Numbered from the stretch's first letter, positions 39,466 to 60,748 are shown. The stretch is 64,000 nt of DNA from Bacteroidales bacterium (GCA_028282785.1 JANQHE010000037.1:206856-270855), one strand, 5' to 3'. Numbers and translations are program-made. Notes: a model not told the origin generated them from the sequence alone.

Positions 39466-39489
39466 CTACATTGGCCCTGCTCTAATCAT
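39466..39489 (-). CDS. SD-led micro-ORF encoding MIRAGPM*
   Basis: GGAGGT at 39499..39494, a 4-nt spacer, then ATG ATT AGA GCA GGG CCA ATG TAG. It lies 76 nt upstream of the M35-like gene start. Confidence 0.6.
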   Translation of the reverse strand: MIRAGPM

Positions 39490-39526
39490 AGCAACCTCCT
39501 TCCTTTTTTGATGAATAGTTTATTCA

Positions 39527-39572
39527 ATTAAAATTAGTTGGATTAATTCAAGCGTGATAGTAAGAATCGGAC
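39527..39572 (-). promoter_or_regulatory. Island promoter-like module i
   Basis: Minus strand: GTCCGATTCTTACTATCACGCTTGAATTAATCCAACTAATTTTAAT. Confidence 0.6.
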
Positions 39573-39856
39573 CAGGTTAATCTTTTTCTAACTTTCATAC
39601 TTTTACTTCTTATTGTTTTGCGATCATACAGTAAAGTATATGAGCATGTCGATTATTAAAAGTATTAAGCAATTCAGTTTTGCCTTTATAAAAACTATAC
39701 TTACTTCGACATGCCCGGTATGATAAGTAAAGTATGAGATAAACAGTTGGAGATTACATTAATTGATAGTTATGAATTCATCAAACTGAACTTATCTGAG
39801 AATATAGAACGTATAACTGTTTTATATTAACGGAGCGCCAGGTTTATGGAAAAATG

Positions 39857-40552
39857 CTATTCTGTTACCTTTTCTATTTCTTTTTTTACATCCGGAGTTT
39901 CTTTTGACTCTACCACTGTTCCTCCGTCTCCAATCTTTATTTTTGTATCACCAATTATTAACTCTGTTGATTTTTCTTTATTCATAGATTCGGTTAACTT
40001 ATCATTCATCTCTTTAATAAGATCAATAAATTCCTTTCGTGATTTTTCGCGTGCATCAAACTGATGTGCTTGTTCTTTCATTTCCTCTTTTTTCAATCGT
40101 TCGGTAGATTGAATTTTGTTTATCTCAACCTGCAACTGATGTTCTGATTTAGCAAGCCTTTCTTTACGTTCCTGTCTCCTGTCAACCAACATCGGATCTT
40201 CATCTTTACCTACCGATGCTTCTTTAATTACCATTATTAATGCCATTACAACGGGTGCAATCATACCAACAACCGGGGTAAAAGCTGACTCAGAAAGAAA
40301 GTAACCTGACATACAGGTAATTAATACCAATAGTACGGTTGTTGGCATTGCCCAACGTCCAACAAGAATAGCAACCATATTATTATTTTTCTGTTTTTGC
40401 TGTTCATTAGTATCCTGATCTGAATTAGCAGAAGGATTCCCAGTTTCAACATCACCCGGCCCATCATCTTGATTATTAATCACCTCATCATCAACAAAAT
40501 CATTGTTCACCTCATTATCAGTAAGATTATTATTAAGTTCATCCTTATTCAT
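39857..40552 (-). CDS. Membrane protein with an acidic N-terminal region, 2-3 TM helices and a C-terminal coiled coil
   Basis: TM block MVAILVGRWAMPTTVLLVLITCMSGYFLSESAFTPVVGMIAPVVMALIMVI. The track start at 40564 is a TTG that lies inside an SD. The likely real start is ATG 40552 (MNKDELNN), preceded by GGAGGT-AATT (40562..40557), identical to the micro-ORF SD context. Confidence 0.6.
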   Translation of the reverse strand: MNKDELNNNLTDNEVNNDFVDDEVINNQDDGPGDVETGNPSANSDQDTNEQQKQKNNNMVAILVGRWAMPTTVLLVLITCMSGYFLSESAFTPVVGMIAPVVMALIMVIKEASVGKDEDPMLVDRRQERKERLAKSEHQLQVEINKIQSTERLKKEEMKEQAHQFDAREKSRKEFIDLIKEMNDKLTESMNKEKSTELIIGDTKIKIGDGGTVVESKETPDVKKEIEKVTE

Positions 40553-40643
40553 AATTACCTCCAATTTTTATAATTCATTTTTTATGAAACATTTAAATTA
40601 TCTTCCTACTAATTCCCAGTTTTCTTCTGGTTTATTGAGTTAT

Positions 40644-40689
40644 TACAAATTTATTAAAGCTTAAGCTTTGTTTATAGTAAAGATCAGAC
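40644..40689 (-). promoter_or_regulatory. Island promoter-like module j (most divergent copy)
   Basis: Minus strand: GTCTGATCTTTACTATAAACAAAGCTTAAGCTTTAATAAATTTGTA. GTCyGAT, TACTAT and a TAAATTTG -7 box sit at exactly the same offsets as in the other nine copies. Confidence 0.5.
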
Positions 40690-40845
40690 AACAACCAAGT
40701 GCTTTCATCTTTTATAAGTTCCCTGTTACTATTTATTTTTGGAAGAATGATGGGAGTATAACATTCATATTTAGTATAAGCTGGCATATTAAATACGAAT
40801 TCTATATTTTTTACAACTTACCGTAAAAAGATTATCCCGATTATT

Positions 40846-42186
40846 TTAATCAGAAATAAAATTTTCTATGTGATCATCATTACGTATTTCGGCAAGATGA
40901 AACTGTATTCCGTAAGGAGATGGAATATTTACAAAAGTATCGCGCCTTACTCCTTCTCCTTGAGCAGGAAATGATTCTGATTTATACACAACATCTTCTT
41001 TATTTGGAATATACCTTGGTTTGGCGTAATTTAATCTTTTTACTATTTTTGTAATTGTATTGTGATACTCTATCAAAGCTAATTTTTTATACTCTTCTTT
41101 ATATCCCAATTGTACCCTTACAATTTTCATAGCTTTTTCAACCTGGCGCTCCATGATTTCATCCAGGTATGGATAGGTTTCAATCAATACTTTTTTTACT
41201 TCTTCCCTGGCTGGTTGGTCAGTAAGTGAATAATCTATAATATTCAAAATGCTATCTTTTACCCATATACCAAATGTTTCTTTTACACCAGAATAAACGC
41301 CCATCTTATTTTGCCTGCTTTCGGGCCTATCTTTTAGAAGTAACAAACTGGGTATTGCCAACAAATTTGCTAATCCCTTACAGATGTGTACTAATGCTAT
41401 TTTACCCTGATTTGTTAATATGTTCTTAACAATTATATTATATAACAATTGATAAGTTTCACTGAAATATTCAAATCTTTCCGAAACATAGGCATCGTTT
41501 TTATGGCTGGAAATAAACTCTGCAATTTCTTTTGCAGTAATTGATATATTTAGTTGAGAATATACCTGATGTTTTATCGTCTTATGTTTTTTTCGCACAG
41601 AGATTAAAAGGCCTGTATTCTCCAAATTTATTTGCCATACATTACCCAAACCATATTTCTTAAAAATTACCGTTAGCTCCCTAAGATTATATCCAAATGC
41701 TTCATTATTTATCTCATGCATCGTTTTCCTTAAATTTTGCCAAATATTATATAGAGCTTCTTTGTTAATTTCTCCATCAACATTAGCTATCAAAAATGGA
41801 GGAAAACCTATTTCTAATTCATTGTATATGTCTGTTTCCAGAACAAAAGGCATATTAAACAGAGAACTAAAACCATCTGTTTTTCCAAGAACTGTATGCA
41901 CTGGTAATTGTTTGTTCTCTTGTATATTTTTAAAACCATAAGTTGCAAATTCAAATTCAAGCCCAATACTCCTGTTAAGCGACATTATTTTTTTCACATC
42001 TCCATTAAACGTATTATAAAGCCAATCTTGATATTCTCTTTGAGCATTTATTATTTCTTTGATTGTAAAATTTCCATCGGCATGAGCTTTTCTCAGCATA
42101 TCGAGATTGTCACAACATTCTTTTATTTTGTAATTTTTTTCAACTGTTTTCAAAATATTTTTGTAGCTATTAATCCCGGTTATCAT
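40846..42186 (-). CDS. Hypothetical protein (446 aa)
   Basis: No signal peptide. The only motif noted is SIGLEFEFATYG, faintly reminiscent of the first strand of glutamine-synthetase-like amidoligases. This is very tentative. Confidence 0.5.
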   Translation of the reverse strand: MITGINSYKNILKTVEKNYKIKECCDNLDMLRKAHADGNFTIKEIINAQREYQDWLYNTFNGDVKKIMSLNRSIGLEFEFATYGFKNIQENKQLPVHTVLGKTDGFSSLFNMPFVLETDIYNELEIGFPPFLIANVDGEINKEALYNIWQNLRKTMHEINNEAFGYNLRELTVIFKKYGLGNVWQINLENTGLLISVRKKHKTIKHQVYSQLNISITAKEIAEFISSHKNDAYVSERFEYFSETYQLLYNIIVKNILTNQGKIALVHICKGLANLLAIPSLLLLKDRPESRQNKMGVYSGVKETFGIWVKDSILNIIDYSLTDQPAREEVKKVLIETYPYLDEIMERQVEKAMKIVRVQLGYKEEYKKLALIEYHNTITKIVKRLNYAKPRYIPNKEDVVYKSESFPAQGEGVRRDTFVNIPSPYGIQFHLAEIRNDDHIENFISD

Positions 42187-42229
42187 TTGTAGGTTTAAAT
42201 ATTGAACTTGAATTTATATTAAATATTTT

Positions 42230-42583
42230 TTAACCAGACCTTAGGCTCTTGGTGAAATCCTCTATTAAGGATATAGATGCATTGGTTTTAACAAACCTGA
42301 TACCCGCATTTCTTCCCGAAACAGTACTATACATTTGGCTTGCACCAACTATTTCGCCATTGGCAGCTTTTAAAAGAAAGTAGTATTTCCCGTTAGAAGA
42401 TCTTTTTTTCTCAAAACAATCATCATCCAAAGAATTTTCCTGTACTGACTTTACACCTTTTAAACAATTCTGTTTTGTAGTGTATGCTTCTCCTACAAGG
42501 ATTTTTCTTCCGTTTTTAGATAGTAATCTGAACCGATATACCTTACCTGACTGGTATATCTGAAATTTTGATTTCGCTTTCAT
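42230..42583 (-). CDS. YegP-family (DUF1508) tandem-repeat protein
   Basis: Two repeats: FQIYQSGKVYRFRLLSKNGRKILVGEAYTTKQNCLKGVKSV and KYYFLLKAANGEIVGASQMYSTVSGRNAGIRFV. Confidence 0.7.
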   Translation of the reverse strand: MKAKSKFQIYQSGKVYRFRLLSKNGRKILVGEAYTTKQNCLKGVKSVQENSLDDDCFEKKRSSNGKYYFLLKAANGEIVGASQMYSTVSGRNAGIRFVKTNASISLIEDFTKSLRSG

Positions 42584-42767
42584 TTTTTTCTGTATTAGTT
42601 AATAAAAAATTAGGTTATTTAATTGATTATTTGATTTTTATATTATTTATCCTAAGAAATTTTCAAGCTTAAGTTTTTATTTAAACCCGAATTAAATATC
42701 AGTTGGTTATTAAAATATTACTAACGGTTGCGATTAAATGATCTTTATTAATTCCTTATAAACCATG

Positions 42768-43823
42768 TTATAATTTTCCTGCATCAACCTGTTTGAATGT
42801 CTTTTGTGGATTTTTATCTCCAGTTAAAAGGTTTAAGGCATTTATCATTTCTTTTTTTAGTTTTTCCATTTCATTCAATTTTCCAAATACCTTTCCTAAA
42901 CTTCCCACACTTTGACCTAATCCAGGTATACTATCTACTCCCATACCCATCTTTTTTAATACAGTATTAAGCATTTTTTCTATCATTACTTTTGCCGCAT
43001 AAAAAAGTGGATTCGTTAGATAAATCATTATTATATCCTTGACAGTTAAGGTTATTTTTTTTATCAATAGATTAATAGTTATCTTTTTTTGAAGTATATT
43101 GTTAATATCCTTCACGCCTAATAATATTCGATCAAGTTCATCCATAAGAATAATGATTGGCTTGAATACTTGGTTTATTATATGGCATAACTTTTCTATA
43201 ACCTCAATAATCGAATCTGTTGCGGATAGTAATTTATTAACTTGTACAAGAATTTCATTGGGAATAATCAGAATTTTATTTTGCAAATTAGACGCAAAAT
43301 TAAGTCGTTTCTGTGACACAATTTTATACCTACTTTCGGGAAGGGCACTTGTCATCGTATGAGCAACAGTCATTAGTTGCTTGTCTTTTTTTACAAATCC
43401 ATCCACTTTTGTTAAGTTTCTCACGATCTTTTCAATATGCTTTCTGAATTTAGCCAGTTTTTCCCTGTGTGGTTTTATTTTTCTCTCCAGGCTATCAACT
43501 CTTTTTTTAGCTTGTTTAACAATGTTTTTAAGTTGAGCAACTACTTTCTGTGCTATTTTTATTACAGGCCCCACAATTGGTACACTTGATAAAGCCTGTA
43601 ATGCTTTTTCAGTTATTAATAATAAAATTTGCAATTCTCCCAGCTTATCTGCTAATTTTTTTGAGATCATCAATGTTTCCTCAAGATCTTCCAGCGTATT
43701 TTGTAAGGTTTGAAACCTATGAATAAGTTGTAACAAATTATTATCTAAACTTGTTAAATTTTTTATGAGACTAACTGTGTGTTTAGTTTGATCTGTAGAG
43801 TTTGTTGTTGCTATTGTACTCAT
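42768..43823 (-). CDS. All-helical/coiled-coil protein, paralog 1 (351 aa)
   Basis: Colinear with 44291..45322. Shared blocks are HTVS(L/F)I, ISKK(L/I)..KL, LERKI...R..LAK(F/Y)R, LP(E/D)SRYK..SQ(K/E)RLN and NPQ(K/E)TF(K/D)QV. No signal peptide. Confidence 0.6.
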   Translation of the reverse strand: MSTIATTNSTDQTKHTVSLIKNLTSLDNNLLQLIHRFQTLQNTLEDLEETLMISKKLADKLGELQILLLITEKALQALSSVPIVGPVIKIAQKVVAQLKNIVKQAKKRVDSLERKIKPHREKLAKFRKHIEKIVRNLTKVDGFVKKDKQLMTVAHTMTSALPESRYKIVSQKRLNFASNLQNKILIIPNEILVQVNKLLSATDSIIEVIEKLCHIINQVFKPIIILMDELDRILLGVKDINNILQKKITINLLIKKITLTVKDIIMIYLTNPLFYAAKVMIEKMLNTVLKKMGMGVDSIPGLGQSVGSLGKVFGKLNEMEKLKKEMINALNLLTGDKNPQKTFKQVDAGKL

Positions 43824-43878
43824 AATTTTACTTTTAAAGTTATTAACCCGATTATATATTTACTTAGCTATAGAATTA

Positions 43879-44229
43879 TCACGGTTTATTTAGTATTCTG
43901 GACAATGATTTACTTAAATATTTTTGAGCCCATGTTTTACCTTTACCTGTTGTTCTTTCCTGCTTTTTAGAAGTTGAATCCCGCTCGCTCTCCAACTGGC
44001 TTAAAAGATCATAAGCTTCACGCAATGATTGCCTAACACTTCTGTTTTTTACATCTCCCTGCCTTTGTTCGGTTTGAGCTTTCCTAATTAACCTTATTAC
44101 CCTGGAGCATTTTGTTTTTGTATTTCGTGACCTTGGTATTAACGACTTTGCCATTTCCATTGCATTCTTTAGAATACTTTTTTCAACAGGTTGGTCATTC
44201 TCTTCAATTGTTTCTATTTTCCAAATCAT
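43879..44229 (-). CDS. Small basic helical protein (116 aa)
   Basis: ORF between the two helical paralogs. It is Arg/Lys-rich and no motif was recognised. Confidence 0.4.
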   Translation of the reverse strand: MIWKIETIEENDQPVEKSILKNAMEMAKSLIPRSRNTKTKCSRVIRLIRKAQTEQRQGDVKNRSVRQSLREAYDLLSQLESERDSTSKKQERTTGKGKTWAQKYLSKSLSRILNKP

Positions 44230-44290
44230 ATTTTTACATTTTCAAATTATTGATTACTCTCATTTTTCAGTTTATTCTTTTATTGAGCTT

Positions 44291-45322
44291 TTAATCTCTT
44301 TGTTCTTCAACCTGATCAAAAGTTTCCTGAGGATTGTTTTTATCAATAAAATTTGAAATAGCACTTTGTATTTCGTTTTTATCTTTTTCAATAGTTCTTA
44401 ATTTTGCTACAGCCTTTTCTAAACTTTCTAAGCTTGGGCCTATACCTGCTATCTCAACTGTATTTACCATTAATTCTTTTAATAATGGTTCCAGAATATC
44501 TACTGCCGATATTGTAAGGTCCTTTATCCCTGTTGTTGCTTCTGTAATAGTAATTATCTTTTTAATTGCAAGTGCTGTTTTTCCACCTGGGTATGTAACA
44601 CTCAATACTTTATTCAAAGCCTCATTTATTTTATCAACAGTATTTATTATACGATTTGCCTCGCTTAACACTTCCTGGATAGGAATTGTAACTTTTTCAG
44701 CAGTTTCGCAAAGCTTTTGAATATCAAATAGGTTTGATTCAATTTTGGCTATTAAGTCAATTACTTTGTCAACAACTATATTGGGAATTTCCAATAATTT
44801 AATTTGTAATTCAGAGGAATTGTTGAGCCGTTCTTGCGAAAGGTTTTTATACCTGCTGTCAGGCAATTTTGTATTCATTTTATGAGTCTTATCGGCTTGT
44901 TGCCCTTCTTTTTTAAGGAATTTCTCAGTATCGGTCAGGGCTTTTACTGTCGTATTTATATAAGCCCTGTATTTTGCCAACATATTTCTATAAGATCTTA
45001 TCTTTCTTTCTAATTCGTTGGCTTTTGCTTTTGGTTGCTCAATTTCCTCCCTTATATTAAGCTCTGACTTGTGCGATTCTTTTGCAACATCGCCTACATA
45101 AGATATGTTTAACAAACCGGATAAAGCATTTCCTGCTTTCTCAAGTACATCGTATACTTCATTGAGTTTTTCGCTTATTTTTTTTGAAATCAACAGTTCT
45201 TTTTCTGTCTCTTCTAAAGTAGTTGTTTGAGATTTAAATTTTTCTATAAGTTCTTCCAGGTTTTTATCCAGGTTTTTTATGTTCCCAATAAAACTTACTG
45301 TATGTTGCGTTAACTTTTTCAT
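44291..45322 (-). CDS. All-helical/coiled-coil protein, paralog 2 (343 aa)
   Basis: See 42768..43823. Confidence 0.6.
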   Translation of the reverse strand: MKKLTQHTVSFIGNIKNLDKNLEELIEKFKSQTTTLEETEKELLISKKISEKLNEVYDVLEKAGNALSGLLNISYVGDVAKESHKSELNIREEIEQPKAKANELERKIRSYRNMLAKYRAYINTTVKALTDTEKFLKKEGQQADKTHKMNTKLPDSRYKNLSQERLNNSSELQIKLLEIPNIVVDKVIDLIAKIESNLFDIQKLCETAEKVTIPIQEVLSEANRIINTVDKINEALNKVLSVTYPGGKTALAIKKIITITEATTGIKDLTISAVDILEPLLKELMVNTVEIAGIGPSLESLEKAVAKLRTIEKDKNEIQSAISNFIDKNNPQETFDQVEEQRD

Positions 45323-45502
45323 AATTAAAGGTTTTAATGGATTTATAGATATTAATTAATTATTTATTGAATGGCATTGTTAATTAATTCCATCTTTACA
45401 TTATATGATATTGCGTGTGTACCTATTTTGAAATAATTAAACTCCAAAATTGGGAACATATACTATAGTATATCTGTATTATCTCTACTATCATTGCTGA
45501 TT

Positions 45503-45961
45503 TCACTTTCTCTTACCCTGAAATATAGTAGTAACGGTTGCGGATAAAAAAGCCAACAAAGCACCCAGCACAATATTAAAAGACTGAGAAGCCAATTGCT
45601 GAATATCATTTGCATTTTCTTCCGCTTTTCTCACAAGATCATTAATTGTGGTTTTAAATACATCTTCATCTTGATTGTCTGGCAGGTTATCACTGTATTT
45701 TTCAATAATAGCAAAATACTTTTCTACATTTTCCTCAGGATCATTAAATGCCATGGGCCAAAAAGCAATATAACCGATGTAACCAAAAATAACAATGTAT
45801 ACCAACATTACGTAAATCCAGATTTTCACAACTCCGAAATTGGATTTTTCATTTGGTTCGTTTATTCCGGCTTCTTCTATATCCGATTCATTTTCTGGTT
45901 TATCTATAAGCTTACATATAAACTCTTTCATTTTTCTAAATAGTTTAAAAATTAAATTCAT
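45503..45961 (-). CDS. Small membrane protein (2 TM helices)
   Basis: TM1 is VVKIWIYVMLVYIVIFGYIGYIAFWPMAF and the C-terminal TM is FNIVLGALLAFLSATVTTIF. Confidence 0.5.
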   Translation of the reverse strand: MNLIFKLFRKMKEFICKLIDKPENESDIEEAGINEPNEKSNFGVVKIWIYVMLVYIVIFGYIGYIAFWPMAFNDPEENVEKYFAIIEKYSDNLPDNQDEDVFKTTINDLVRKAEENANDIQQLASQSFNIVLGALLAFLSATVTTIFQGKRK

Positions 45962-46092
45962 CTTAATATTCTATTAGTGTTGTAAGCAATTGTAGCCTAT
46001 TATAAAAGGATTGTAAAGACTAATAATGCAACCCTTTTGAGGGAGTTTTATATAACCCGATAAAGTATAAATAAAGAGTTTTTATTCTCCAT

Positions 46093-46140
46093 TTGATTGA
46101 AAACCTGCGTGGACAAAGCTTCGACAGGCTTTCAAATCAA
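46093..46140 (-). promoter_or_regulatory. Long imperfect hairpin downstream of the five-gene run
   Basis: Arms TTGATTGAAAACCTG (46093..46107) and CAGGCTTTCAAATCAA (46125..46140) pair at ~13/15 positions. It lies 45 nt after the stop at 46185 and has no U-tract, so it is not a canonical terminator. Confidence 0.3.
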
Positions 46141-46184
46141 ACAAGGATACACAGTGAAACAAGCATGTATTTAAAATATCGTTT

Positions 46185-46730
46185 CTAAGGTGTCATTCTT
46201 GAAATAATAAGATCAAGCATTTTTTGCAAACCTTCAGGTTTATCTTGCATGTTTGCTTCAACTCGAAATTGATATTTTGCCCCCATACTGGTTTTTCGAG
46301 TATTTTCTTTTGACTCACTAATTTTTCCCAGCATTTCTGTTTTCTTCAATGAAAACAGTTTTAGTTTTTTCATCTTATCTTCCTGATTACTATTATACTT
46401 ATTGGCATTTTCGATAGTTGTTTTCACCTCCAACTGAAAATCGACGGTAACCTTGTCAATCATTAATGAAGGAATAGGAAGTAAAGAAAGAAGTGGTGCT
46501 TTAACTGTTTCCTTGGCATAGGTAACAACTCCATCTTCTAATTTTTCTGCGATTGGGACATCAAAATCGATGGTTTTCAACTCTCCTTCATCATCGAACC
46601 CAATTAGTTTAATAAACTCATATGTACTCTCCGCTAAAGCGATCTGAGATTCCATAGTTGCACGAAACGGTGCACCAATAAGTTCTTTCATGGGCAATGA
46701 ACGAAGTTGATTTGCAACATTATTTTCCAT
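46185..46730 (-). CDS. Island family-1 protein (DUF2589-like), paralog 1
   Basis: LPMKELIGAPFRATMESQIALAESTYEFIKLIGFDD..APLLSLLPIPSLMIDKVTVDFQLEV..AKYQFRVEA..PEGLQKMLDLI. The same blocks occur in 47237.., 49052.. and 55284.., and more weakly in 46732... No signal peptide or TM helix. Confidence 0.6.
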   Translation of the reverse strand: MENNVANQLRSLPMKELIGAPFRATMESQIALAESTYEFIKLIGFDDEGELKTIDFDVPIAEKLEDGVVTYAKETVKAPLLSLLPIPSLMIDKVTVDFQLEVKTTIENANKYNSNQEDKMKKLKLFSLKKTEMLGKISESKENTRKTSMGAKYQFRVEANMQDKPEGLQKMLDLIISRMTP

Positions 46731-46731
46731 T

Positions 46732-47205
46732 TTATTTATCTTTTGGTATTACATTATTTGCAAAACTTTCGATAATACGCTGGATACCCTCCGGCGCATC
46801 ACCCTGTTTAAATTTCATCTTTAAATCAATCATATTCGTATCTCTACCAGATTTAACACCTCCTGAAGCAAAAGAAATATTAAAACTTGCACGATGAATT
46901 TCGTCACCTGCTTTTGTTATTTCCTTTTTTTTATCGATGCCATCAACCCTCAAACTCATATCAACTTCCAGCTCATCAAGTTCCATTCCCGTAGGTGTAA
47001 CGAGAGTAATTAAGGGAATATCAATAGATGTGTCATCTGAAATATTTATTCCCATTGAAATAGGATTTTGATCATCATCAAAGTAGCGGTCCAATAATTT
47101 AATATAAAATTTCTCAACGACATCTTGCGCTGCATTAACCGTATATTGTATTCCTTTAGCAATATCCGACAAGGTTTGTCCAGTTTTTTTATTTTCTTCT
47201 TTCAT
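46732..47205 (-). CDS. Island family-1 protein, divergent paralog 2
   Basis: IDIPLITLVTPTGMELDELEVDMSLRV..IDLKMKFKQGDAPEGIQRIIESF follows the same order of blocks. There is only a 1-nt gap to the next gene. Confidence 0.5.
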   Translation of the reverse strand: MKEENKKTGQTLSDIAKGIQYTVNAAQDVVEKFYIKLLDRYFDDDQNPISMGINISDDTSIDIPLITLVTPTGMELDELEVDMSLRVDGIDKKKEITKAGDEIHRASFNISFASGGVKSGRDTNMIDLKMKFKQGDAPEGIQRIIESFANNVIPKDK

Positions 47206-47236
47206 TTGTTTATATTTTTCTTAATTGTTTACGTTA

Positions 47237-47809
47237 TCATTTGTTTTCAACTTTTGGAACAAGACTAGCCTCTGTAAGAATATCTATAATCTTGCTTAAG
47301 GATTCCGGTTGTTCCTGTTTTTTTGCAACTACTTTAAAACTATATTTAGCACTCGTATCCGACGAGCGTGCATTAGCCGATTGATGTGTCAGGCTCGTTT
47401 CTATATTCATATTATCCTTTTCCACTTCAATTCGTCTTCCTTGCGAATCTTTAATGAATTGTTTTTCCTTTTTATTACTTGAAGTATGAATGCGTAAATC
47501 GAAGGCAACTTCCACATTCTCAATAGCTAGAGATGGCGGTTGCACCAACGCCAGATAAGGAAGGTCTACAGATATTTTACGTGATTTACCATTTGGATTT
47601 CCCTCATTGTCAACTTCATCAGATTCAAAAGCAAACGGGATCATTCGAACGTCTCCATTTTTATCTACGGCAACTTTATCCAGAAATTCTAACATTTCAT
47701 CGTTCATAATCGATTGAGCCTTGACAGCTGCTACGATCGGAGCAGCTACCATTTTTTCTATTGCAAGGGGTTTAATAACACCCGCTACTGATTCATCATT
47801 TTTAGCCAT
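47237..47809 (-). CDS. Island family-1 protein, paralog 3
   Basis: LAIEKMVAAPIVAAVKAQSIMNDEMLEFL..VDLPYLALVQPPSLAIENVEVAFDLRI..AKYSFKVVA..PESLSKIIDIL. Confidence 0.6.
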   Translation of the reverse strand: MAKNDESVAGVIKPLAIEKMVAAPIVAAVKAQSIMNDEMLEFLDKVAVDKNGDVRMIPFAFESDEVDNEGNPNGKSRKISVDLPYLALVQPPSLAIENVEVAFDLRIHTSSNKKEKQFIKDSQGRRIEVEKDNMNIETSLTHQSANARSSDTSAKYSFKVVAKKQEQPESLSKIIDILTEASLVPKVENK

Positions 47810-47829
47810 TATTTTTAATTTTAATGTAT

Positions 47830-48390
47830 TTATTCATTTTTGTGATATATTTTAGTTATGTGATCCTTTTTCGAATACCTCAATTTTTTACTATAGCGTA
47901 GTATTCGTTTGCAAAATGTGACAATTAAATCCCAAAACGATGGTATTTTTTGTAAATGACATTTTACATATTCTGTAATTTCTTCAACAACATCTTCGGT
48001 AAGGTCATTTTTATAATGTTCAAATTGAATCTTTAAATCTCTTTTCGATGTTTGTGTGGCATTTATAGTAAAGGCTGTTTTTTTAGCTTCTTCCTGAGTA
48101 TCATTTTTATATTCGATGAGCTTATTTTTTAATTTGAATCTCTTTAAAGGGAAACTAACGGATAATAACTCTAAATCATAAGTATATACTTGCATTGCTT
48201 TGGTCAAAATCGTTTCAGTATCAGCAGGCTTTGAAGATGCATTCTTTAAGTACTTCCTGTTATTTTCCAAATACCTTTCGACAACAGATTGCTTAAAGTG
48301 GGTTTCTGTTTTTTTAAGTTGCTTAAAAATATCTTGATTCCCTCTGGCTACAGCTATAAGTCCTTTAACACTTGAAATTCTTTTTCCCAT
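47830..48390 (-). CDS. Hypothetical protein (186 aa)
   Basis: ORF in the operon. The C-terminus contains a tandem RYSKKL/RYSKKD duplication. No recognised motif. Confidence 0.45.
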   Translation of the reverse strand: MGKRISSVKGLIAVARGNQDIFKQLKKTETHFKQSVVERYLENNRKYLKNASSKPADTETILTKAMQVYTYDLELLSVSFPLKRFKLKNKLIEYKNDTQEEAKKTAFTINATQTSKRDLKIQFEHYKNDLTEDVVEEITEYVKCHLQKIPSFWDLIVTFCKRILRYSKKLRYSKKDHITKIYHKNE

Positions 48391-48401
48391 TACTATTTTT
48401 A

Positions 48402-48911
48402 TTAAATTGACTGAACCCCAATAAAAAGATCTATGATTAAATCATCGATCGATTGATTTGGTGTTATTTTATTACGGTATATATTGTATATTGGGGTTAC
48501 AACCTGGAGGTTGTTTTCTGATATGTATTGGTGCAGTATATCATAAGCGGTATTTAAAAGCTCCGGATTTCCCTTGTGTGTTGCATAAATCCCATTCTCA
48601 AGTTGAAAGGTTTTAATAAACTTATAATCCCCTGTGTTAAAACTTTTTTCTAATTGGCTGATATTTTTATTTTTATATAAGCTATTCTTAATATCAACAG
48701 GAATCATAATTTCAATATCTAATATCTTCTTATCATTTTCGTCATTTATATTATGGACGGTTGTTATAATACCTCCGTTTTGGTTTAATTTGTGTTTTTT
48801 TATGAAAGCAGTTAAATTGGCAAATTCCTTATTCACTTCAACTTCAAGAACTTCTTTTCTACATGCCAAAAGATTTTCTAATTTAATTTCCGCATTCTCA
48901 TATATATCCAT
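48402..48911 (-). CDS. GyrI-like/AraC-effector-binding-domain-like small-molecule-binding protein
   Basis: 169 aa. The pattern ..GGIITTVHN..IEIMIPV.. and ..GIYATHKGNPELLNTAYDILHQYISENNLQV..PIYNIY resembles the duplicated beta-alpha-beta-beta GyrI-like fold. Confidence 0.4.
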   Translation of the reverse strand: MDIYENAEIKLENLLACRKEVLEVEVNKEFANLTAFIKKHKLNQNGGIITTVHNINDENDKKILDIEIMIPVDIKNSLYKNKNISQLEKSFNTGDYKFIKTFQLENGIYATHKGNPELLNTAYDILHQYISENNLQVVTPIYNIYRNKITPNQSIDDLIIDLFIGVQSI

Positions 48912-48934
48912 AATGATAAAGTGTTTTTTTGATT

Positions 48935-49038: not shown

Positions 49039-49051
49039 ATTTTAAACTAAA

Positions 49052-49618: not shown

Positions 49619-49966
49619 AATTTTTGATTTTTAATTTTTTTCTCTATTGAGAAATGTTATTTATTATTTGTTATTATTATTCGTACATTGAAAAACAACT
49701 ATCATTTTTAATGTATATTCTGTTGTATTTTATTAGCATGTACCAGCTATTTATTTCTTTGTTATGTCATATCCACCCCCCTCTCTTGTTTAAAATGTTC
49801 AACATACTTCATGCACCCACCCATTTAAACAATCCTTATTCAATTGCAGGTTAGGTCAACAAAGCTACCCGTATGAACAAATTGTTCAGATTGGACTTTA
49901 ATTACAATTGATATTGTTAATTTGCTTTGTTTTGGTTTATCAAGTTTACCTGTAAAAAGGCGAAGT

Positions 49967-51874: not shown

Positions 51875-51903
51875 AATCTCATTTGTTTAATTAATACTTA
51901 TTT

Positions 51904-52461
51904 TTAAAAATCACTCTCCTCCAACAATGTATAAGTGAATAGCGATTGCCCAGAGTCTTTACAGATTTGCATAAAACGGTCAAAGTCATCAACTTTTTGA
52001 AATACCTGACATCCAGCCGACCATTTTTCAACTATCTGTGACTCGCTAGTAGGGTTACTGCGATGGATATTAATTCCAAACATGCCCTGATATATTTTTC
52101 CTTCCTTATCAATAATATTATCCTTGTTATTATCGCGCCATACTTTTAAATACGATTCTTGTTTAAGAGCTTCATATTTTCCCTGGTGTAACCCAATCTT
52201 ATGTGACCCTATGTATTGCCCCGGAACTAACACTGCTGTTCCATCCACACTTAAAGGATTATTTAGCCAATAAGTGCCGGGATCTGTGGTTATTGGGAAT
52301 ATCAACGGATCGTCGTCACCTTTTATAAGGTACAACCAATCGTCAAAGGAATTTGAAACATTGTTATTACTGCGAATTCCAATGATGTTAAGCTCATCAT
52401 CAAAAAATTTATATCCTTTTTTTGCGAGAACTTCTTTAATTTGATCGATAGTAAATTCCAT
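51904..52461 (-). CDS. YkuD-fold L,D-transpeptidase/carboxypeptidase-like protein
   Basis: GINIHRSNPTSESQIVEKWSAGCQVF has His and Cys 18 residues apart with an SxGC context, as in the H..(S/T)xGC(I/V)R signature of L,D-transpeptidases. 185 aa with no signal peptide. Confidence 0.45.
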   Translation of the reverse strand: MEFTIDQIKEVLAKKGYKFFDDELNIIGIRSNNNVSNSFDDWLYLIKGDDDPLIFPITTDPGTYWLNNPLSVDGTAVLVPGQYIGSHKIGLHQGKYEALKQESYLKVWRDNNKDNIIDKEGKIYQGMFGINIHRSNPTSESQIVEKWSAGCQVFQKVDDFDRFMQICKDSGQSLFTYTLLEESDF

Positions 52462-55254: not shown

Positions 55255-55283
55255 TAGTATCCTCTTTTATCTTTAATTCATTT

Positions 55284-55775: not shown

Positions 55776-55890
55776 TGTTTGTTGTTTAAGTAAATTTGAT
55801 TTGAATTAATTTTAAAACCGTATAAATGGCTTATTGCTTATCATTTCATGACATTTCACATTTTATGGGTTGATAAGCTTAATAAGTTTT

Positions 55891-55988
55891 AAACCCGTTT
55901 GATGAATGTATCGATCATTATTACCAGTATATAAAATGGAAAACCTCCAATGGTTGTAATAGTCTTTTAGCATTCATCAAACCGGTTT
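55891..55988. repeat. 18-bp inverted repeat enclosing an orphan SD in the leader of 55284..55775
   Basis: AAACCCGTTTGATGAATG (55891..55908) and CATTCATCAAACCGGTTT (55971..55988) are complementary at 17/18 positions. The 62-nt loop contains GGAGGT (55948..55943, minus strand) with no ATG at the usual spacing. Confidence 0.5.
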
Positions 55989-56002
55989 AATAATTAACCT
56001 AT

Positions 56003-56276: not shown

Positions 56277-56891
56277 TTACCGTTTTTCTAGAAAACCATC
56301 GCCTGAAATCTTGTAACCTTTATGTAACCATACTCCTAAATCTTCTAACCAAATGTGGTTATTTTTATCTATTATATCATAAACTTCTTTCCATGTTCCG
56401 TCGTCGCTATTAATATTTTTTCTTGGTTTGAATTCAACAAAACATTTTTCAAAATTTTCACAATCTATTTCCGGATATTTATTGAGTATTGGTACAATAT
56501 TATTATGTGCAAGCATTATTTTAGGGTAGTTTATTAGTATTTCTCTGAATTTCATTGCATTCTCCTTATTCCAAATTTTTAAATTATTGTATAGAAATCC
56601 ACTTAAAAAAAAAGGTGCATCATCCTTTGTTTCAGGTTCAGGTTTCCAATCTACAATTCTACTTGCAACTAAATCATTCTTTCCCCCAAAGTCTGTTCCT
56701 ATTATAGCACAGGTATCTGACATTATAATATCTCTAAAATTGTTATTCTTCCCCCAATTGTTAAGCCAATCCTCTGTTGGCTTGTCGCCCCAGTCTTTTT
56801 TTTCTTGTCCTTCGTAAAATTCTTTCCTTTTCGGGCCTTCTTCTTCTTTTTTATCTTCCATTTTATTTCTTTTTATTGGTTTTAATTGCAT
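56277..56891 (-). CDS. Hypothetical protein (204 aa, or 194 aa from the internal Met at 56861)
   Basis: The track start ATG at 56891 lies only 9 nt after the conserved leader hairpin, so MEDKKEEE at 56861 is the more likely start. No recognised motif. Confidence 0.45.
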   Translation of the reverse strand: MQLKPIKRNKMEDKKEEEGPKRKEFYEGQEKKDWGDKPTEDWLNNWGKNNNFRDIIMSDTCAIIGTDFGGKNDLVASRIVDWKPEPETKDDAPFFLSGFLYNNLKIWNKENAMKFREILINYPKIMLAHNNIVPILNKYPEIDCENFEKCFVEFKPRKNINSDDGTWKEVYDIIDKNNHIWLEDLGVWLHKGYKISGDGFLEKR

Positions 56892-56900
56892 CTTTAATAA

Positions 56901-56920
56901 AAGGTGCCTATCAACACCTT
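56901..56920 (-). promoter_or_regulatory. Conserved 5'-leader hairpin (attenuator/terminator-like), copy 2
   Basis: Minus-strand RNA is AAGGUG-UUGAUAGG-CACCUU followed by UUAUUAAAG. The flanks CTTcAAATAAGGTGTTG..CACCTTTTAttAAAG match copy 1. Confidence 0.45.
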
Positions 56921-57117
56921 ATTTGAAGAAATTATTCAAAAAATAATATAGTTGAATTTTATTTATCTTTTTTACCTGGTGTAACACAGTCAGCCGACAA
57001 GGCCGGTTTGTGATTCTCTATGAAACAACTTTTTATAATTTTACCACAAGCTTGCTTGCTGCAAGCAGGGTTTTATAAATAAAACTATTTTTTTGAACAC
57101 TCTCTAATAAATATCTT

Positions 57118-57138
57118 TTAAGGCCCTGCTCTTATCAT
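57118..57138 (-). CDS. SD-led micro-ORF encoding MIRAGP*
   Basis: GGAGGT at 57148..57143, a 4-nt spacer, then ATG ATA AGA GCA GGG CCT TAA. The ATG is 41 nt after the -7 box of module c. Confidence 0.6.
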   Translation of the reverse strand: MIRAGP

Positions 57139-57176
57139 AATAACCTCCTTCTTTAATTGGTTTAAAATTTACTTAC

Positions 57177-57222
57177 ATCAAAAGTAGTTTGTAATAAACC
57201 CCTATGATAGTATATACTGGAC
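57177..57222 (-). promoter_or_regulatory. Island promoter-like module c
   Basis: Minus strand: GTCCAGTATATACTATCATAGGGGTTTATTACAAACTACTTTTGAT. Confidence 0.6.
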
Positions 57223-57424
57223 ATGCTCTTTTTTTACTATTGTTCAATATTTGAAATCTTTTTAAGGTTAAAACGAAAGGTATCCTCTGCTTAACTTATA
57301 TTGTGATTATTTCTATCCTGAACCGGGTTTAATTGTGTATTATTACCAAAGATTAAGGATTCTTGCAGCTATACTTTTTATTATTTGATAAAGAACGGAT
57401 AACATATCCGGCCCAACGGAGTAT

Positions 57425-57877
57425 TTATTCAGTGTCTATTTTAAAAAACAACATAACTTCATATTTGGTAGTTACACTTTCGGTTATAACACTCCACATT
57501 GCTCTTGCCGTTGGTTTTTTTTGTGCATCCTGAGGTTCTGTATATTTAGCACTTGGTACTTCTCTCCAGGTTGAGCCTGCCTTCTTAGCAAAGTGCATTT
57601 CATACGCCTTATAATCACTAATTTGTTTATCTCTTTTACCCAAACACAAAATAATATTAAAATCTTCTTCTTCTTTATCACTTACATCAAACGATATTCC
57701 TTTCCCTTCGCACATTTCCTGCAATATTACTGCAATATCAGTTGCATAATGTTCTTTTTTTTGTGCCTGGTTGTTTTTTTTATAATATTCTTTCAGTTTT
57801 GTTTGAAGTGTTGTCAAGCTAAGTTTCTTGTTTATCGCATAATCAAAACAATTTAAATATTTCTTTTTTGCTTCCAT
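57425..57877 (-). CDS. Hypothetical protein (150 aa)
   Basis: The ATG lies 23 nt after the -7 box of module d, giving a short A-rich leader. No recognised motif. Confidence 0.5.
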   Translation of the reverse strand: MEAKKKYLNCFDYAINKKLSLTTLQTKLKEYYKKNNQAQKKEHYATDIAVILQEMCEGKGISFDVSDKEEEDFNIILCLGKRDKQISDYKAYEMHFAKKAGSTWREVPSAKYTEPQDAQKKPTARAMWSVITESVTTKYEVMLFFKIDTE

Positions 57878-57897
57878 TTTATTTTTTATTGATTTAG

Positions 57898-57943
57898 TTC
57901 AAAAGTAGCTGGTAATAAACCCCTATGATAGTATATATCGGAC
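57898..57943 (-). promoter_or_regulatory. Island promoter-like module d
   Basis: Minus strand: GTCCGATATATACTATCATAGGGGTTTATTACCAGCTACTTTTGAA. Confidence 0.6.
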
Positions 57944-57993
57944 ATATTCTTTCTTATTATCATCCATTGTTTGAAATCTCATTAAAGTAAAAA

Positions 57994-58058
57994 GAGGATG
58001 TCCAAAAAGTCAAAACCCAACGTCATTACTGACATCTTCGGGTCTTTTGAACACCTTC
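57994..58058. repeat. MITE-like palindromic element, short copy D (65 bp)
   Basis: GAGGATGTCCAAAAAGTC...GTCTTTTGAACACCTTC. It sits inside an intergenic repeat whose sister copy (57223..57424) is ~50 bp shorter at this point. Confidence 0.45.
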
Positions 58059-58287
58059 TTACTGGTATTGTGAGTATTTCTATCTTGAACCGGGCTTAAC
58101 TGTATATTACCAGAGACAAAAAATTCTTATATCCATGTTATTTGTCATTGATAAGGACCGGATAACATATCCGATCCAGCCGGAGATAATTCCATATTAT
58201 AATTAAAATAGAAAAGGTTATCTTTATAAATTAGATAACCTTTTTCTAATGCTTAATTTAAAATAATGCAATACCTTTTTATGATAA

Positions 58288-59226
58288 TTATTCCAGAGGA
58301 AATTTATCATAAAAGGCAAAGCCTCCCTTTACAGAATCTTCATGTGCATATTCCTCTCCTGTCATTCTATGAAATAAATCCTTAAGCTTAGCACTGGTAA
58401 ACAGATTACCATGTCTCAATTCTCCTAAAGCCATGTTTTTTAGTAAAACGTAGTTAGAAGCTTCTTTTCTATCTTTTCCCTTAAAAACTACTCCCTGATT
58501 ATTAGCTCCATCTACATAAAATGCATATTGTGGTTGATGTTCATCGGTCCACCTATATGGCCCCATCCCCGCAGAACATACCAGGTGAATATCAAATTCC
58601 TCATTCTTTAACCTTTCCTTTGTGTTATCCAAACAAATTTCCAATCCATATACTATGTCATCAATTTTAAATATACCCCCACCGTTAAATCCTGAAATAT
58701 TTGATTCCGTTCCGGCTTCATCGACTTCAGGTTTTATCAAATTTCCTATCTCGGAAAAATCCAAATCAGAGATATTCTCTTTAATTACAACAAAACAATT
58801 TTCTCCTGCTGTAATTTGATCGTACTTAACTCCTCCTTTTAATACAAGAGCTGAGTTAAGAATTACCCTTTCATTAGCTGGATTAAGATAGCTAACAACA
58901 ACTGTCCCAAAAATAAACAGCCAGTCTTTATAAATATTTTTACCAGTTTCTACACTCATTAATCTAAATATTTCCGGTATAACATTTAAATCTTCATAAT
59001 AGCCTTTTTTAGGCCTGAAGAAAAACTCAGGTGCCATAAAAACTTTTAGTGTGTCTTCTGAAGAATAATTTTGTGCCCAATTTTCATTCGCATACATAAT
59101 TGCTTTTTCTAAAACCAATAATCTTGCTATGTAATCTTCTTTTTGATCTTCAAGGCCAACATAAGTTTCCGGGCCTCCACTTACATAAGGGGAAAAATCT
59201 GCAAATGTGATATATTTATATTTCAT
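58288..59226 (-). CDS. Carbon-nitrogen-hydrolase (nitrilase-superfamily)-like protein
   Basis: Candidate E-K-C triad: FMAPEFFF, VVIKENISDLDF and YGLEICLDN. 312 aa with no signal peptide. Confidence 0.5.
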   Translation of the reverse strand: MKYKYITFADFSPYVSGGPETYVGLEDQKEDYIARLLVLEKAIMYANENWAQNYSSEDTLKVFMAPEFFFRPKKGYYEDLNVIPEIFRLMSVETGKNIYKDWLFIFGTVVVSYLNPANERVILNSALVLKGGVKYDQITAGENCFVVIKENISDLDFSEIGNLIKPEVDEAGTESNISGFNGGGIFKIDDIVYGLEICLDNTKERLKNEEFDIHLVCSAGMGPYRWTDEHQPQYAFYVDGANNQGVVFKGKDRKEASNYVLLKNMALGELRHGNLFTSAKLKDLFHRMTGEEYAHEDSVKGGFAFYDKFPLE

Positions 59227-59414
59227 ATTTTTAAATTTTTTAATTTGTTATTTTTAACTTATCCTAATAGACTATATAACAATCTATTATATTACCAAAT
59301 CATTAATGAATGTAATTTTAAGTATAATTTAATGATATATTATACTACAAAACTTTATATAATTATAATTTTCGGCTTAGACTAACTCAACGAAGATATT
59401 TTATTTACCAGCTT

Positions 59415-60650
59415 CTATTTTTTTCTGTTTCGGGTTGGAATCTCTACATCTAACCATATATCCCAATAATCTTCACTTAATTTCCCATTAACCTCTTTTA
59501 AACTCTCCCCTTCTTTTTTCCATACTCCAAACCTATCGCTTTTATCATATTCACTATCACAATGTAAAAGCACACCTCCTTCAATTAGATCTATACTATT
59601 CTCATTATGATCTGTTGATGCTGACAATATAATATGAATATCCGGACGTATTTCCTCTTTATTATAATCCGGACAATTCTCCAAAACTTTATCCTGATGA
59701 TCTTTACAAATCTCCAGTATTATTTGATGTGAACTGTCCTCCATACGATAATTCCATTGACTCTTTGGTCCTTTTACAAAAAACCGGCTATTTGGGTCCA
59801 TACCAATATAATGTAACTTTTGATCAGGTTTAGGAGGATGCATTAAATAAGTCCCGGTAATTTCTATATACTCCTCATGTTTACATAGTTTGGTCACGCT
59901 ACCATCTCTAAAAACCTGAGCGCAATTCATCAAAAACGTTGTTTCGGGATTTTGCAATGTTTCCTTTAAATCCTCATTGGTGTAATAACCAGATCTGTAT
60001 ATTTCAGGAGCTTGAACGGATGCTAACTGAGCTTCTTTAGGATTAATTCTTGATAAAATATTTTTATAGCGTATATCTCGGGCTATTTGCGGATCAAAAT
60101 CCTTAAATAATAAATTCTCATTCTTTTGAATCTTTTTAAATTCTTCTAATTTTGAGCTTCTTACTATTGTTCCGGGTATTATATAACAACCTTCCGGACG
60201 ATTGAATTTAAGATTCTCCATTAACTGATCTACTTTTATTACATTTTCCTCATTCAGTGCCCTGGAAGACAACATATAAGTTACATCATTATTATTAGCA
60301 TTTTTCTTGAGCCAATCCTCAACCTGCTCACTGCTCTCAAGGCTTGAAGCATTTCCTGTAAAATCTTGCCATACGTTTGAAAAATTGCCTCTCGGATATT
60401 CTTTAATGCCCTTATCCATATAAGATTTCATATCTAAAACGACCTCTTTCTTGGTTTTTGTTGCTTTTTCTGCAAAAAAATATTCAGGTGCCAGAATAAT
60501 AAAGGGTTTTTTATTAATTTTATTAGCTGCATGCATAGCATTCTCAAATATTTCGATTCTCTCATCAACAGATTTAACCATTCCCGACTGTTCCGATGTT
60601 TTCAGTTTTATCATTAGAATATTATATTCTTTTGATCCTTCTTTTTCCAT
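59415..60650 (-). CDS. Carbon-nitrogen-hydrolase-like protein, paralog
   Basis: IILAPEYFFAEK, LCKHEEYIE and QIILEICKDHQD. 411 aa with no signal peptide. Confidence 0.45.
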   Translation of the reverse strand: MEKEGSKEYNILMIKLKTSEQSGMVKSVDERIEIFENAMHAANKINKKPFIILAPEYFFAEKATKTKKEVVLDMKSYMDKGIKEYPRGNFSNVWQDFTGNASSLESSEQVEDWLKKNANNNDVTYMLSSRALNEENVIKVDQLMENLKFNRPEGCYIIPGTIVRSSKLEEFKKIQKNENLLFKDFDPQIARDIRYKNILSRINPKEAQLASVQAPEIYRSGYYTNEDLKETLQNPETTFLMNCAQVFRDGSVTKLCKHEEYIEITGTYLMHPPKPDQKLHYIGMDPNSRFFVKGPKSQWNYRMEDSSHQIILEICKDHQDKVLENCPDYNKEEIRPDIHIILSASTDHNENSIDLIEGGVLLHCDSEYDKSDRFGVWKKEGESLKEVNGKLSEDYWDIWLDVEIPTRNRKK

Positions 60651-60715
60651 TGTATAAATTTTAATTCATTTACATACTTCTTTAACAGCGTTATTTATTA
60701 ACATATTTTAATACC

Positions 60716-60748
60716 TTAACCATTAAAATTGGGCCCTGCTCTAATCAT
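60716..60748 (-). CDS. SD-led micro-ORF encoding MIRAGPNFNG*
   Basis: GGAGGT at 60758..60753, a 4-nt spacer, then ATG ATT AGA GCA GGG CCC AAT TTT AAT GGT TAA. The ATG is 41 nt after the -7 box of module e, and the stop is 65 nt before the main ATG at 60650. Confidence 0.6.
   Translation of the reverse strand: MIRAGPNFNG

Follow-up and report, generated by a model that had tools for sequence, protein, structure and literature searches.

MIRAGP micro-open reading frames and a repeated promoter-leader module in a Bacteroidales gene island

Introduction

Arrest peptides of the SecM type are the natural point of comparison for the element considered here, a set of micro-open reading frames (micro-ORFs) that encode MIRAGP in a 64,000-nucleotide stretch of DNA from a Bacteroidales bacterium (GCA_028282785.1, JANQHE010000037.1:206856-270855; the whole stretch is called the window below). 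Among SecM homologues, Ile162, Arg163 and Pro166 are the sole invariant residues, and RAG-P constitutes the arrest module at the peptidyl-transferase centre (PMC10951299). The sequences RAGP, RAPP and RGPP are strongly avoided in proteomes, and they form the cores of arrest peptides encoded by upstream open reading frames (uORFs) before diverse genes in many phyla. RAGP is the weaker core, leaning more on contacts at the tunnel constriction, and an adjacent N-terminal region is considered necessary for RAPP-like cores, RAGP in particular (PMC12992588).

A second body of work concerns the Shine-Dalgarno (SD) sequence. The ribosomes of Bacteroidia sequester the anti-SD and SDs are depleted in their genomes, and these ribosomes are reported to be SD-blind unless the protein bS21 is absent (PMC9976891, PMC13000453). 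In Flavobacteriales, extended SDs of -14 to -21 kcal/mol were encountered only on rpsU, and SD control was concluded to be limited to that gene (PMC9976891, PMC13000453). The published rpsU screen took annotated genes only, and micro-ORFs in leaders would thus escape it.

The present work surveys the MIRAGP micro-ORFs together with their leaders, their relatives and the genes behind them. Judged from the sequence, the MIRAGP codons appear to be one version of a reusable promoter-leader module that stands before interchangeable toxin-like genes.

Results

Three MIRAGP frames in the window

The micro-ORFs, designated c1 to c3, are the following.

39489 to 39466, minus strand: c1, MIRAGPM and a stop codon, ATGATTAGAGCAGGGCCAATGTAG
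57138 to 57118, minus strand: c2, MIRAGP and a stop codon directly after Pro, Ile encoded by ATA, ATGATAAGAGCAGGGCCTTAA
60748 to 60716, minus strand: c3, MIRAGPNFNG and a stop codon, ATGATTAGAGCAGGGCCCAATTTTAATGGTTAA

These frames lie where a first-pass annotation of the window had placed them, all three on the minus strand, and its description of them was accurate: codons 1-6 differ solely at the wobble bases of the Ile and Pro codons, the sequence beyond Pro is unrelated between the copies, and each frame occupies a leader position 65-230 nt before an island gene, the next long ORF following after 75 nt (c1), 226 nt (c2) and 65 nt (c3). When the MIRAGP modules of relatives (see below) are included, the extension of the micro-ORF past the Pro codon ranges from 0 to 18 codons.

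The degenerate pattern ATGATHAGRGCNGGNCC matches three times in the 64-kb window, compared to 0.00 expected from 100 shuffles. In the six-frame translation of the window, RAGP occurs at the c1-c3 sites only, and RAPP, RGPP and RAPG have zero occurrences. The window contains about 1020 ATG micro-ORFs of 2-12 codons, and the chance of IRAGP is estimated to be of the order of 1e-7 per position; it is thus unlikely, on sequence grounds, that a constrained, SD-led uORF would be identical to I-R-A-G-P by coincidence.

The promoter-leader module

A repeat search revealed a 50-nt unit in ten copies, every copy on the minus strand, composed of TGTCCGAT-N3-TACTAT, then N19, then CTAnTTTT(G/A). The 3' part of this unit fits the Bacteroidota -7 promoter element, TAnnTTTG. 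When two mismatches at most are allowed, 11 matches to the box GTCCGATNNNTACTAT are obtained (1.33 expected), all of them on the minus strand at 35.3-62.6 kb (window 35309-62554), and a twelfth copy is located about 25 nt past the window end (~64025; L101:1205), before an operon encoding a 118-amino-acid (aa) AraC/SoxS-like protein. In five of the ten promoter copies of the window, AAGGAGGT follows 28-29 nt past the -7 box, with an ATG 4-5 nt further. The promoters that serve the three MIRAGP frames are listed here.

39524..39573, minus strand: promoter module of c1, GGTCCGAT-N3-TACTAT ... CTAATTTTA (-7 box)
57174..57223, minus strand: promoter module of c2, TGTCCAGT-N3-TACTAT ... TACTTTTG
60784..60833, minus strand: promoter module of c3, TGTCCGAT-N3-TACTAT ... 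TACTTTTG

The frames c1, c2 and c3 are therewith paralogous parts of a repeated promoter-leader module of 100-215 nt, and because they are paralogous copies they represent one ancestral event followed by conservation, rather than three independent events.

The half-sites of the box GTCCGAT-N3-TACTAT are 11 bp apart and resemble a marbox. The island itself codes for a protein that may read it:

62964..63320, minus strand: AraC/SoxS-like protein of 118 aa, consisting of the DNA-binding domain only

This SoxS-like protein, whose own operon bears the same box, is a candidate for an activator that controls itself along with the rest of the island. A sigma-54-type promoter was also considered, in view of the similar spacing of the bipartite box and a weak Sigma54_CBD match of a 235-aa protein, and was dropped, since no copy lacks a well-placed -7 box (TAnnTTTG) and a SoxS-like DNA-binding protein is among the products of the island.

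Directly after three island genes there is a repeat of about 110 nt (60834-60945, 58066-58173 and 57299-57410, minus strand), which contains a hairpin resembling an intrinsic terminator (60885-60908, GAAGGGTGCCCTTC followed by a T run) and has the next promoter module downstream. The hairpin repeat precedes the promoter module, and terminator, promoter and leader thus seem to travel together as an intergenic unit.

Extended Shine-Dalgarno sequences of the leaders

For the calculation of duplex energies, the 3' tail of the 16S rRNA was taken to be GAACACCUCCUUUCU, the canonical Bacteroidia sequence, which is assumed from general knowledge and not read from this genome. With this assumed tail, the SDs of the micro-ORFs form helices of 9-12 bp at -13.6 to -20.7 kcal/mol, those of the module leaders spanning -13.6 to -17.5, with a weaker value of -10.6 for one module of a relative (L086b), and the median for the long genes of the window (n=50) is -1.1 kcal/mol.

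39494..39504, minus strand: extended SD of c1, AGGAAGGAGGT, 11 bp, -17.0 kcal/mol, GGAGG core 5 nt before the ATG
57143..57151, minus strand: extended SD of c2, GAAGGAGGT, -13.8 kcal/mol
60753..60761, minus strand: extended SD of c3, GAAGGAGGT, -14.0 kcal/mol

In an alignment of ten leaders the SD core GAGGT is invariant and the ATG nearly so, the two being separated by 5-6 nt. A census of GGAGG on the coding strand showed that all correctly spaced GGAGG-ATG pairs belong to leader micro-ORFs, barring a single gene:

40547..40564, minus strand: sole long gene with a true SD, TTGGAGGTAATTATGAAT, start at 40552, -10.7 kcal/mol

Fourteen nt of the SD-ATG segment of c3, GGAGGTAATTATGA, recur unchanged at the SD and start of this 231-aa gene, which has a promoter of the same class. 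The product of the gene (39857-40564, minus strand, under a variant of the island promoter) has 231 aa and is of low complexity, with coiled-coil and a probable membrane segment; a Sigma54_CBD match at E = 0.0016, below cut-off, belongs to this product.

Translation of the micro-ORFs is plausible, because the SDs of the leaders are canonical, optimally spaced and exceptionally strong. This accessory island contains at least six micro-ORFs with an extended SD, which are unannotated.

An operon-internal mini-ORF with an extended SD

A further extended SD is found inside the island, between the gene of a 635-aa protein and the first DUF2589 gene.

49757..49785, minus strand: second extended SD (GAGAGGGGGGTGG) and a two-codon ORF, ATG ACA TAA (MT-stop)

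The two-codon ORF reads MT-stop in the window and, in the same form, in L086; MT-stop is also found in L090 (with ACT and TGA), MI-stop in L089 and MK-stop in L100 (SD at L090:8368, L089:~8875 and L100:3087). In the intergenic regions of L099 and of Flavivirga aquimarina (L092), whose proteins share 41-43% identity with those of the window, the SD persists without a well-spaced ATG. The intergenic region around this SD (~330 nt) is itself well conserved. The SD and its mini-ORF are unrelated to the module, and as a second case of the same theme they would support it.

Leader variants in the window and in relatives

Two paralogous leaders of the window have retained a strong SD and carry a different micro-ORF.

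38361..38399, minus strand: paralogous leader, MSRVVQF-stop at 38384 to 38361, SD AGAAAGGAGGT, -17.5 kcal/mol
37300..37333, minus strand: paralogous leader with shifted ATG, MV-stop at 37317 to 37309 (ATGGTTTAG), SD -17.5 kcal/mol

The homology of the MSRVVQF leader to c1 stops within the ORF, past ATGA-TAGAG, and the MV leader has kept the nucleotides AGAGTAGGGCC (AGAG-AGGGCC) out of frame.

The search was extended to relatives by an ORF-agnostic metagenome scan, defined by the promoter box, the -7 box and then AGGAGG, and by retrieval of syntenic islands through protein homologues. The scan yielded two further leaders, L085 with MIRAGPYK-stop before a patatin gene and L084 with MI-stop before an Exo_endo_phos gene. 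Among the syntenic islands, L086 (a relative of ~85%) has the orthologue of c3 unchanged and an additional module, L086b, which encodes MIRAGPNSYEFKTPKESSIVNVKN and a stop (MIRAGPNSYEF...), with the Gly codon changed from GGG to GGA and a weakened SD. In L089, a relative of 77%, the micro-ORF is MIR-stop, and L093 and L094 again have MI-stop. An overly AT-rich promoter and SD pattern run against the genome collection gave 80 chance matches, none with the promoter box; a frame-agnostic leader pattern run against viral contigs gave only two GC-rich chance matches within coding sequence; and the plasmid and phage collections contained no blastn match to the module.

MIRAGP is thus encoded by 5/9 distinct modules and RAGP is absent from 4/9 (MV, MSRVVQF, MIR and MI), the nine coming from a sparsely sampled clade, which makes for a thin evidence base. 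The five MIRAGP modules vary only synonymously (ATT/ATA, GGG/GGA, CCA/CCT/CCC). The cassette directly upstream of the gene of a 163-aa DUF2589 protein has a positional orthologue in four lineages, in each of which both the cargo, i.e., the gene behind the leader, and the micro-ORF differ.

Window (c2), cassette before the 163-aa DUF2589 gene: MIRAGP-stop, cargo of 204 aa
L086, same position: MIRAGPNSY..., cargo of 354 aa
L089, same position: MIR-stop, cargo of 236 aa
L084, same position: MI-stop, cargo of 233 aa

Positional orthologues in lineages of ~75% identity accordingly read MIR-stop and MI-stop. L085 and c3 have the gene and terminator upstream in common and differ in their cargo, the homology stopping directly past GGGCC. 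A frame broken while its nucleotides are kept, which the first-pass annotation had named among the observations that would refute its reading, was encountered in part, namely in the MV paralogue with its out-of-frame AGAG-AGGGCC. RAGP seems dispensable for the leader family, because four of nine modules do without it; what all leaders have in common is an SD, an ATG and a tiny ORF.

Conservation of the ORF block

Between c1 and c3 the ORF block is identical at 17/17 positions, compared to 45/77 (~58%) in the flanks (promoter, untranslated region (UTR) and spacer). Given the flank identity, 17/17 has a calculated P of about 1e-4, and the ORF block is on this account considered to be under constraint. 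The comparison of c1 with the c2/c3 clade gives 56-60% for the promoter, 52-62% for the UTR, 25-50% for the spacer, 8/8 for the SD and 16-17/17 for the ORF block. The closest sisters of c1 share 88-96% of the promoter with it, but their ORF blocks match at just 13/17 and 11/17 positions. The simplest reading of these identities would be that the ORF block is under purifying selection in five modules and that constraint has been relaxed in the rest. Whether selection acts on the peptide or on the nucleotides can be judged from two internal substitutions, both of them synonymous and in third position, a weak test with an estimated P of about 0.05 and a partly circular one, as intact copies were chosen for the comparison. 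The earlier claim of selection on the peptide is partly supported, by the conserved block and its exclusively synonymous changes, and is weakened by the MV paralogue, in which nucleotides are kept out of frame.

Cargo junctions cluster just 3' of the Pro codon and are not identical between modules. Past GGGCC, c3 and L086b have CAAT in common, and c1 and leader w37402 share a few more bases; homology of leader w38469 breaks past AGAG and that of L089 past AGA. The clustering 3' of Pro fits a functional unit that ends at Pro.

The same observations bear on the possibility that the module is an evolutionary relic, namely what is left of an ancestral SD-led island gene (its promoter, its 5' UTR and its opening codons), behind which cargo was swapped in by recombination, with codons 2-6 devoid of a function of their own. 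The 14 nt that c3 shares with the start of a real gene at 40552, the documented replacement of cargo directly behind the module, and the decay or truncation of the ORF in four modules would all follow from such a history. A relic is nevertheless expected to decay at the rate of its flanks, yet c1 retains 17/17 positions next to flanks of ~58%; moreover, the SD core is invariant and optimally spaced in all modules, and the SD mini-ORF inside an operon, though unrelated, has been conserved even in distant lineages. A relic is hence regarded as improbable.

RNA structure and the arrest hypothesis

Leaders with MIRAGP fold with no added stability over shuffled sequence (z = +1.1, 0.0, +1.1 and +1.0), and a search among them for a conserved pairing partner of the ORF region found none. 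In c2, AGCAGGG can pair with CCCUGCU 55 nt downstream, a partner that is absent in c1 and L086b. A terminator scan detected no terminator between c1 or c3 and the cargo; c2 has hairpins downstream, yet the terminator-like match is on the opposite strand. In Rfam 15 there are zero gathering-score matches in the whole window, and relaxation to E<10 gives chance-level matches around c2 only. An AU-rich stem between the 5' UTR and the AUG region, seen in some copies, was rejected, having no covariation support and being weakened by the ATA of c2. Attenuation or unmasking of a ribosome-binding site (RBS), as initially suggested for these leaders, did not find support, as there are no conserved alternative hairpins and the folds are no stabler than shuffles. 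Leaders that fold no better than shuffles appear to be built open, which would suit ribosome access.

These results also concern a reading in which the block GGAGGT...AGAGCAGGGCC acts as a nucleic acid, either as an RNA structure or protein site or as a junction for DNA cassette recombination, and the frame is incidental. The out-of-frame AGAG-AGGGCC of one paralogue, the end of homology at or just past GGGCC in five cassettes and the pairing of c2 AGCAGGG with CCCUGCU are in line with it. It is at odds with the lack of an Rfam match, with folds that equal shuffles and a downstream partner missing from c1 and L086b, with junctions that differ (CAAT in c3 and L086b, past AGAG in w38469, past AGA in L089), with the failure to identify a recombinase among the scanned island genes, and with the restriction of variable sites to third codon positions; we consider it highly improbable.

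A strict arrest-peptide model would have the ribosome stall at Gly5/Pro6 in response to a signal and thereby exert attenuation, RBS unmasking or anti-termination, the peptide being essential. The peptide equals the I-R-A-G-P core of SecM, including its three invariant residues, the five modules vary synonymously only, and homology between modules stops a few nt past Pro, with 0-18 further codons of ORF; the ORF block stands at 17/17 against ~58% in the flanks, and RAPP-like uORFs regulate diverse genes in many phyla (PMC12992588). Against this, four of nine modules, positional orthologues included, keep the SD and ATG without RAGP, neither a conserved alternative structure nor a terminator follows the ORF, RAGP is a weak core that normally needs an N-terminal tunnel segment (PMC12992588), and no mechanism of release or sensing is apparent for a chain of six residues. 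The SecM-like arrest that had been proposed from the sequence is partly supported, by the exact, SD-led and constrained I-R-A-G-P core, and the loss of RAGP from 4/9 modules and the missing N-terminal tunnel segment tell against it; in its strict form the model is unlikely.

Discussion

A proposed ribosome-parking leader

The reading that we prefer, at a probability of roughly 0.45, is that of a ribosome-parking leader within a modular cassette of promoter and leader, from which interchangeable effector-like genes are expressed. Its indispensable parts would be the extended SD and the ATG. The bipartite box GTCCGAT-N3-TACTAT, upstream of the -7 element TAnnTTTG, would probably be read by the SoxS-like activator of the island. 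A 5' UTR of ~36 nt would follow, with the extended SD ~22 nt from the predicted 5' end and the ATG 5-6 nt past the SD core. The long helix between SD and anti-SD would capture a ribosome at the 5' end, where it would remain. In five modules, N-formylmethionine-Ile-Arg-Ala-Gly together with Pro-tRNA would recreate the RAG/P of SecM, which slows peptide-bond formation, and would probably prolong the pause; in the other modules the ORF stops after 2-3 codons (7 in one copy), and in the shortest the stop is presumably reached with the SD helix still paired. A ribosome parked in this way would most likely act like a 5' stabiliser, protecting or licensing the mRNA downstream, and probably flips no specific attenuator. 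Protection or licensing is favoured over a specific attenuator because of the independence from cargo, the variable distance to the cargo and the operon-internal twin. The leader may also tie expression of the island to ribosomes with a free anti-SD, because the ribosomes of Bacteroidia normally hide theirs.

Several considerations weigh against ribosome parking. Capture by ordinary ribosomes is uncertain, given the SD-blindness reported for Bacteroidia; the transcription start, the translation of the micro-ORFs and the stabilisation are each inferred; the perfect conservation of IRAGP may indicate a more specific, regulated role than parking; and the four modules without RAGP may mean that the codons past ATG-ATT are immaterial.

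A bolder version of the parking leader is very unlikely, in which bare I-R-A-G-P is enough to halt Bacteroidia ribosomes once five peptide bonds are made, the rpsU-class extended SD restricts loading to ribosomes whose anti-SD is free (e.g., those without bS21), and the island is switched or stabilised by the state of the ribosome. Were it true, no natural arrest ORF acting without a drug would be shorter, and SD-dependent control would for the first time extend beyond rpsU in the class. The module itself would challenge both the view that RAPP-like cores need an N-terminal tunnel segment and the view that SD-dependent translation in Bacteroidia of the Flavobacteriales type is confined to rpsU autoregulation.

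The module may be seen as a variation on known kinds, namely the uORF with an arrest core, the leader based on an SD and, in Bacteroidia, the extended SD. Being short, portable and independent of its cargo, it is directly testable as a 60-nt element, and it could serve as a tool for expression or stability in Bacteroidota. It also draws attention to an uncharacterised DUF2589 cluster, in which a single dedicated promoter type serves toxin-like cargo that can be swapped (YopT-like peptidase, M35 protease, patatin, Exo_endo_phos).

The island and its cargo

The window belongs to the chromosome of a member of the Bacteroidota and includes a GH92 gene and a SusC/SusD locus. The island extends over ~35-64 kb, has all its genes on the minus strand, and codes for seven DUF2589 paralogues, DUF1508, and proteins of 635 and 446 aa without a family match. 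Its effector-like genes include a YopT-like Peptidase_C58, Aspzincin_M35 and patatin. The genes behind the three MIRAGP leaders are as follows.

38854..39390, minus strand: cargo of c1, Aspzincin_M35 metalloprotease-like, 178 aa
56277..56891, minus strand: cargo of c2, 204 aa, no family match
59415..60650, minus strand: cargo of c3, 411 aa, no family match

A search of 5.8 billion proteins found a single homologue of the cargo protein of c3. In close relatives, different cargo is found behind identical modules, 411 aa versus patatin in one case and 204 versus 354, 236 and 233 aa (Exo_endo_phos) in the other (loci compared: window 56277-60650; L085; L086:4575-8662; L089:1671-2642; L084:6296-7245). 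With cargo varying behind identical modules, the island behaves like a series of cassettes that can be exchanged; the scan of island genes identified no recombinase.

The DUF2589 cluster (window 40846-52461, minus strand; L089, L092, L099, L100) is conserved in several Flavobacteriia-like lineages. Besides four to six DUF2589 paralogues, it contains one protein of 609-637 aa and several others without a family match. In distant relatives it adds patatin, a pyridoxal-dependent decarboxylase and a Neur_chan_LBD protein and adjoins a LytTR two-component system, and a 30% homologue is present in a metagenome-assembled genome of Acidobacteriota. DUF2589 proteins have no sequence match in PDB and no match in NCBIfam; an AlphaFold model built on 8 sequences was poor, with a predicted local distance difference test score (pLDDT) of 58.8, and its Foldseek matches were meaningless.

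A leader of another kind, also conserved, precedes the 163-aa DUF2589 gene (window 55870-56000, minus strand), with a 14-bp stem UUUUGAUGAAUGC/GCAUUCAUCAAAA around CCAnUGGAGGUUUUCC. It is also found at L086:9023-9155, L084:7357-7466, L093:1099-1230, L098:652-785 and L089:~2755-2850. An indel between lineages breaks the annotated 41-aa ORF in this leader, and conservation is thus apparently at the level of RNA; the leader has no match in Rfam.

Comparison with known systems

The module shares features with five kinds of known element. Leader-peptide attenuators (trp, ermC/cat, tnaC) likewise have a short ORF in the leader before a gene, and the module differs from them in having neither conserved alternative hairpins nor a terminator directly after the ORF (c1, c3), and in the variable distance to its cargo. 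Two-codon minigenes and start-stop elements are known from lambda bar (AUG-AUA-stop) and from the start-stop sites of E. coli. The MI, MV, MT and MK variants, with a strong SD, AUG, one sense codon and a stop, are of this form, whereas the MIRAGP variants are longer and contain an arrest core; no role in toxicity or drop-off is implied.

The STAB-SD and 5' stabilisers of Bacillus (cry3A, ermC leader, aprE leader) have in common with the module an extended complementarity to 16S rRNA near the 5' end. The extended SD of the module stands 65-226 nt upstream of the cargo start, remote from the start of the cargo itself; several copies contain GAAAGGAGG, the genes concerned are of the toxin type, and the element is independent of cargo and also occurs within an operon. 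The STAB-SD of Bacillus requires no start codon, whereas in the module an optimally spaced ATG and a short ORF always follow the SD, and its host belongs to the Bacteroidota, which sequester the anti-SD. The extended SD of rpsU in Flavobacteriales, which serves bS21 autoregulation, is similar in its helices of 9-12 bp at about -14 to -21 kcal/mol within an SD-depleted phylum; the module, in contrast, precedes unannotated micro-ORFs in an accessory island, not rpsU.

The likeness to SecM and the RAPP-like peptides (SecM, ApdA, ApdP, ApcA, YwcI) resides in the Ile and R-A-G-P of the module, SecM 162-166, and in the upstream position of the ORF; five distinct modules contain the defining core, Arg-Ala-(Gly/Pro)-Pro, in which Arg and Pro are essential. 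The ORF of the module differs in having six codons, with only fMet-Ile before the core and no tunnel-spanning N-terminal segment, and its genes are effector-like rather than components of the protein-localisation machinery, with no homology to secM. As the N-terminal module is absent, the motif does not occur in all orthologues and there is no homology, the module is not a member of the SecM family; a six-codon version of the arrest peptide is nonetheless plausible, and would be unprecedented.

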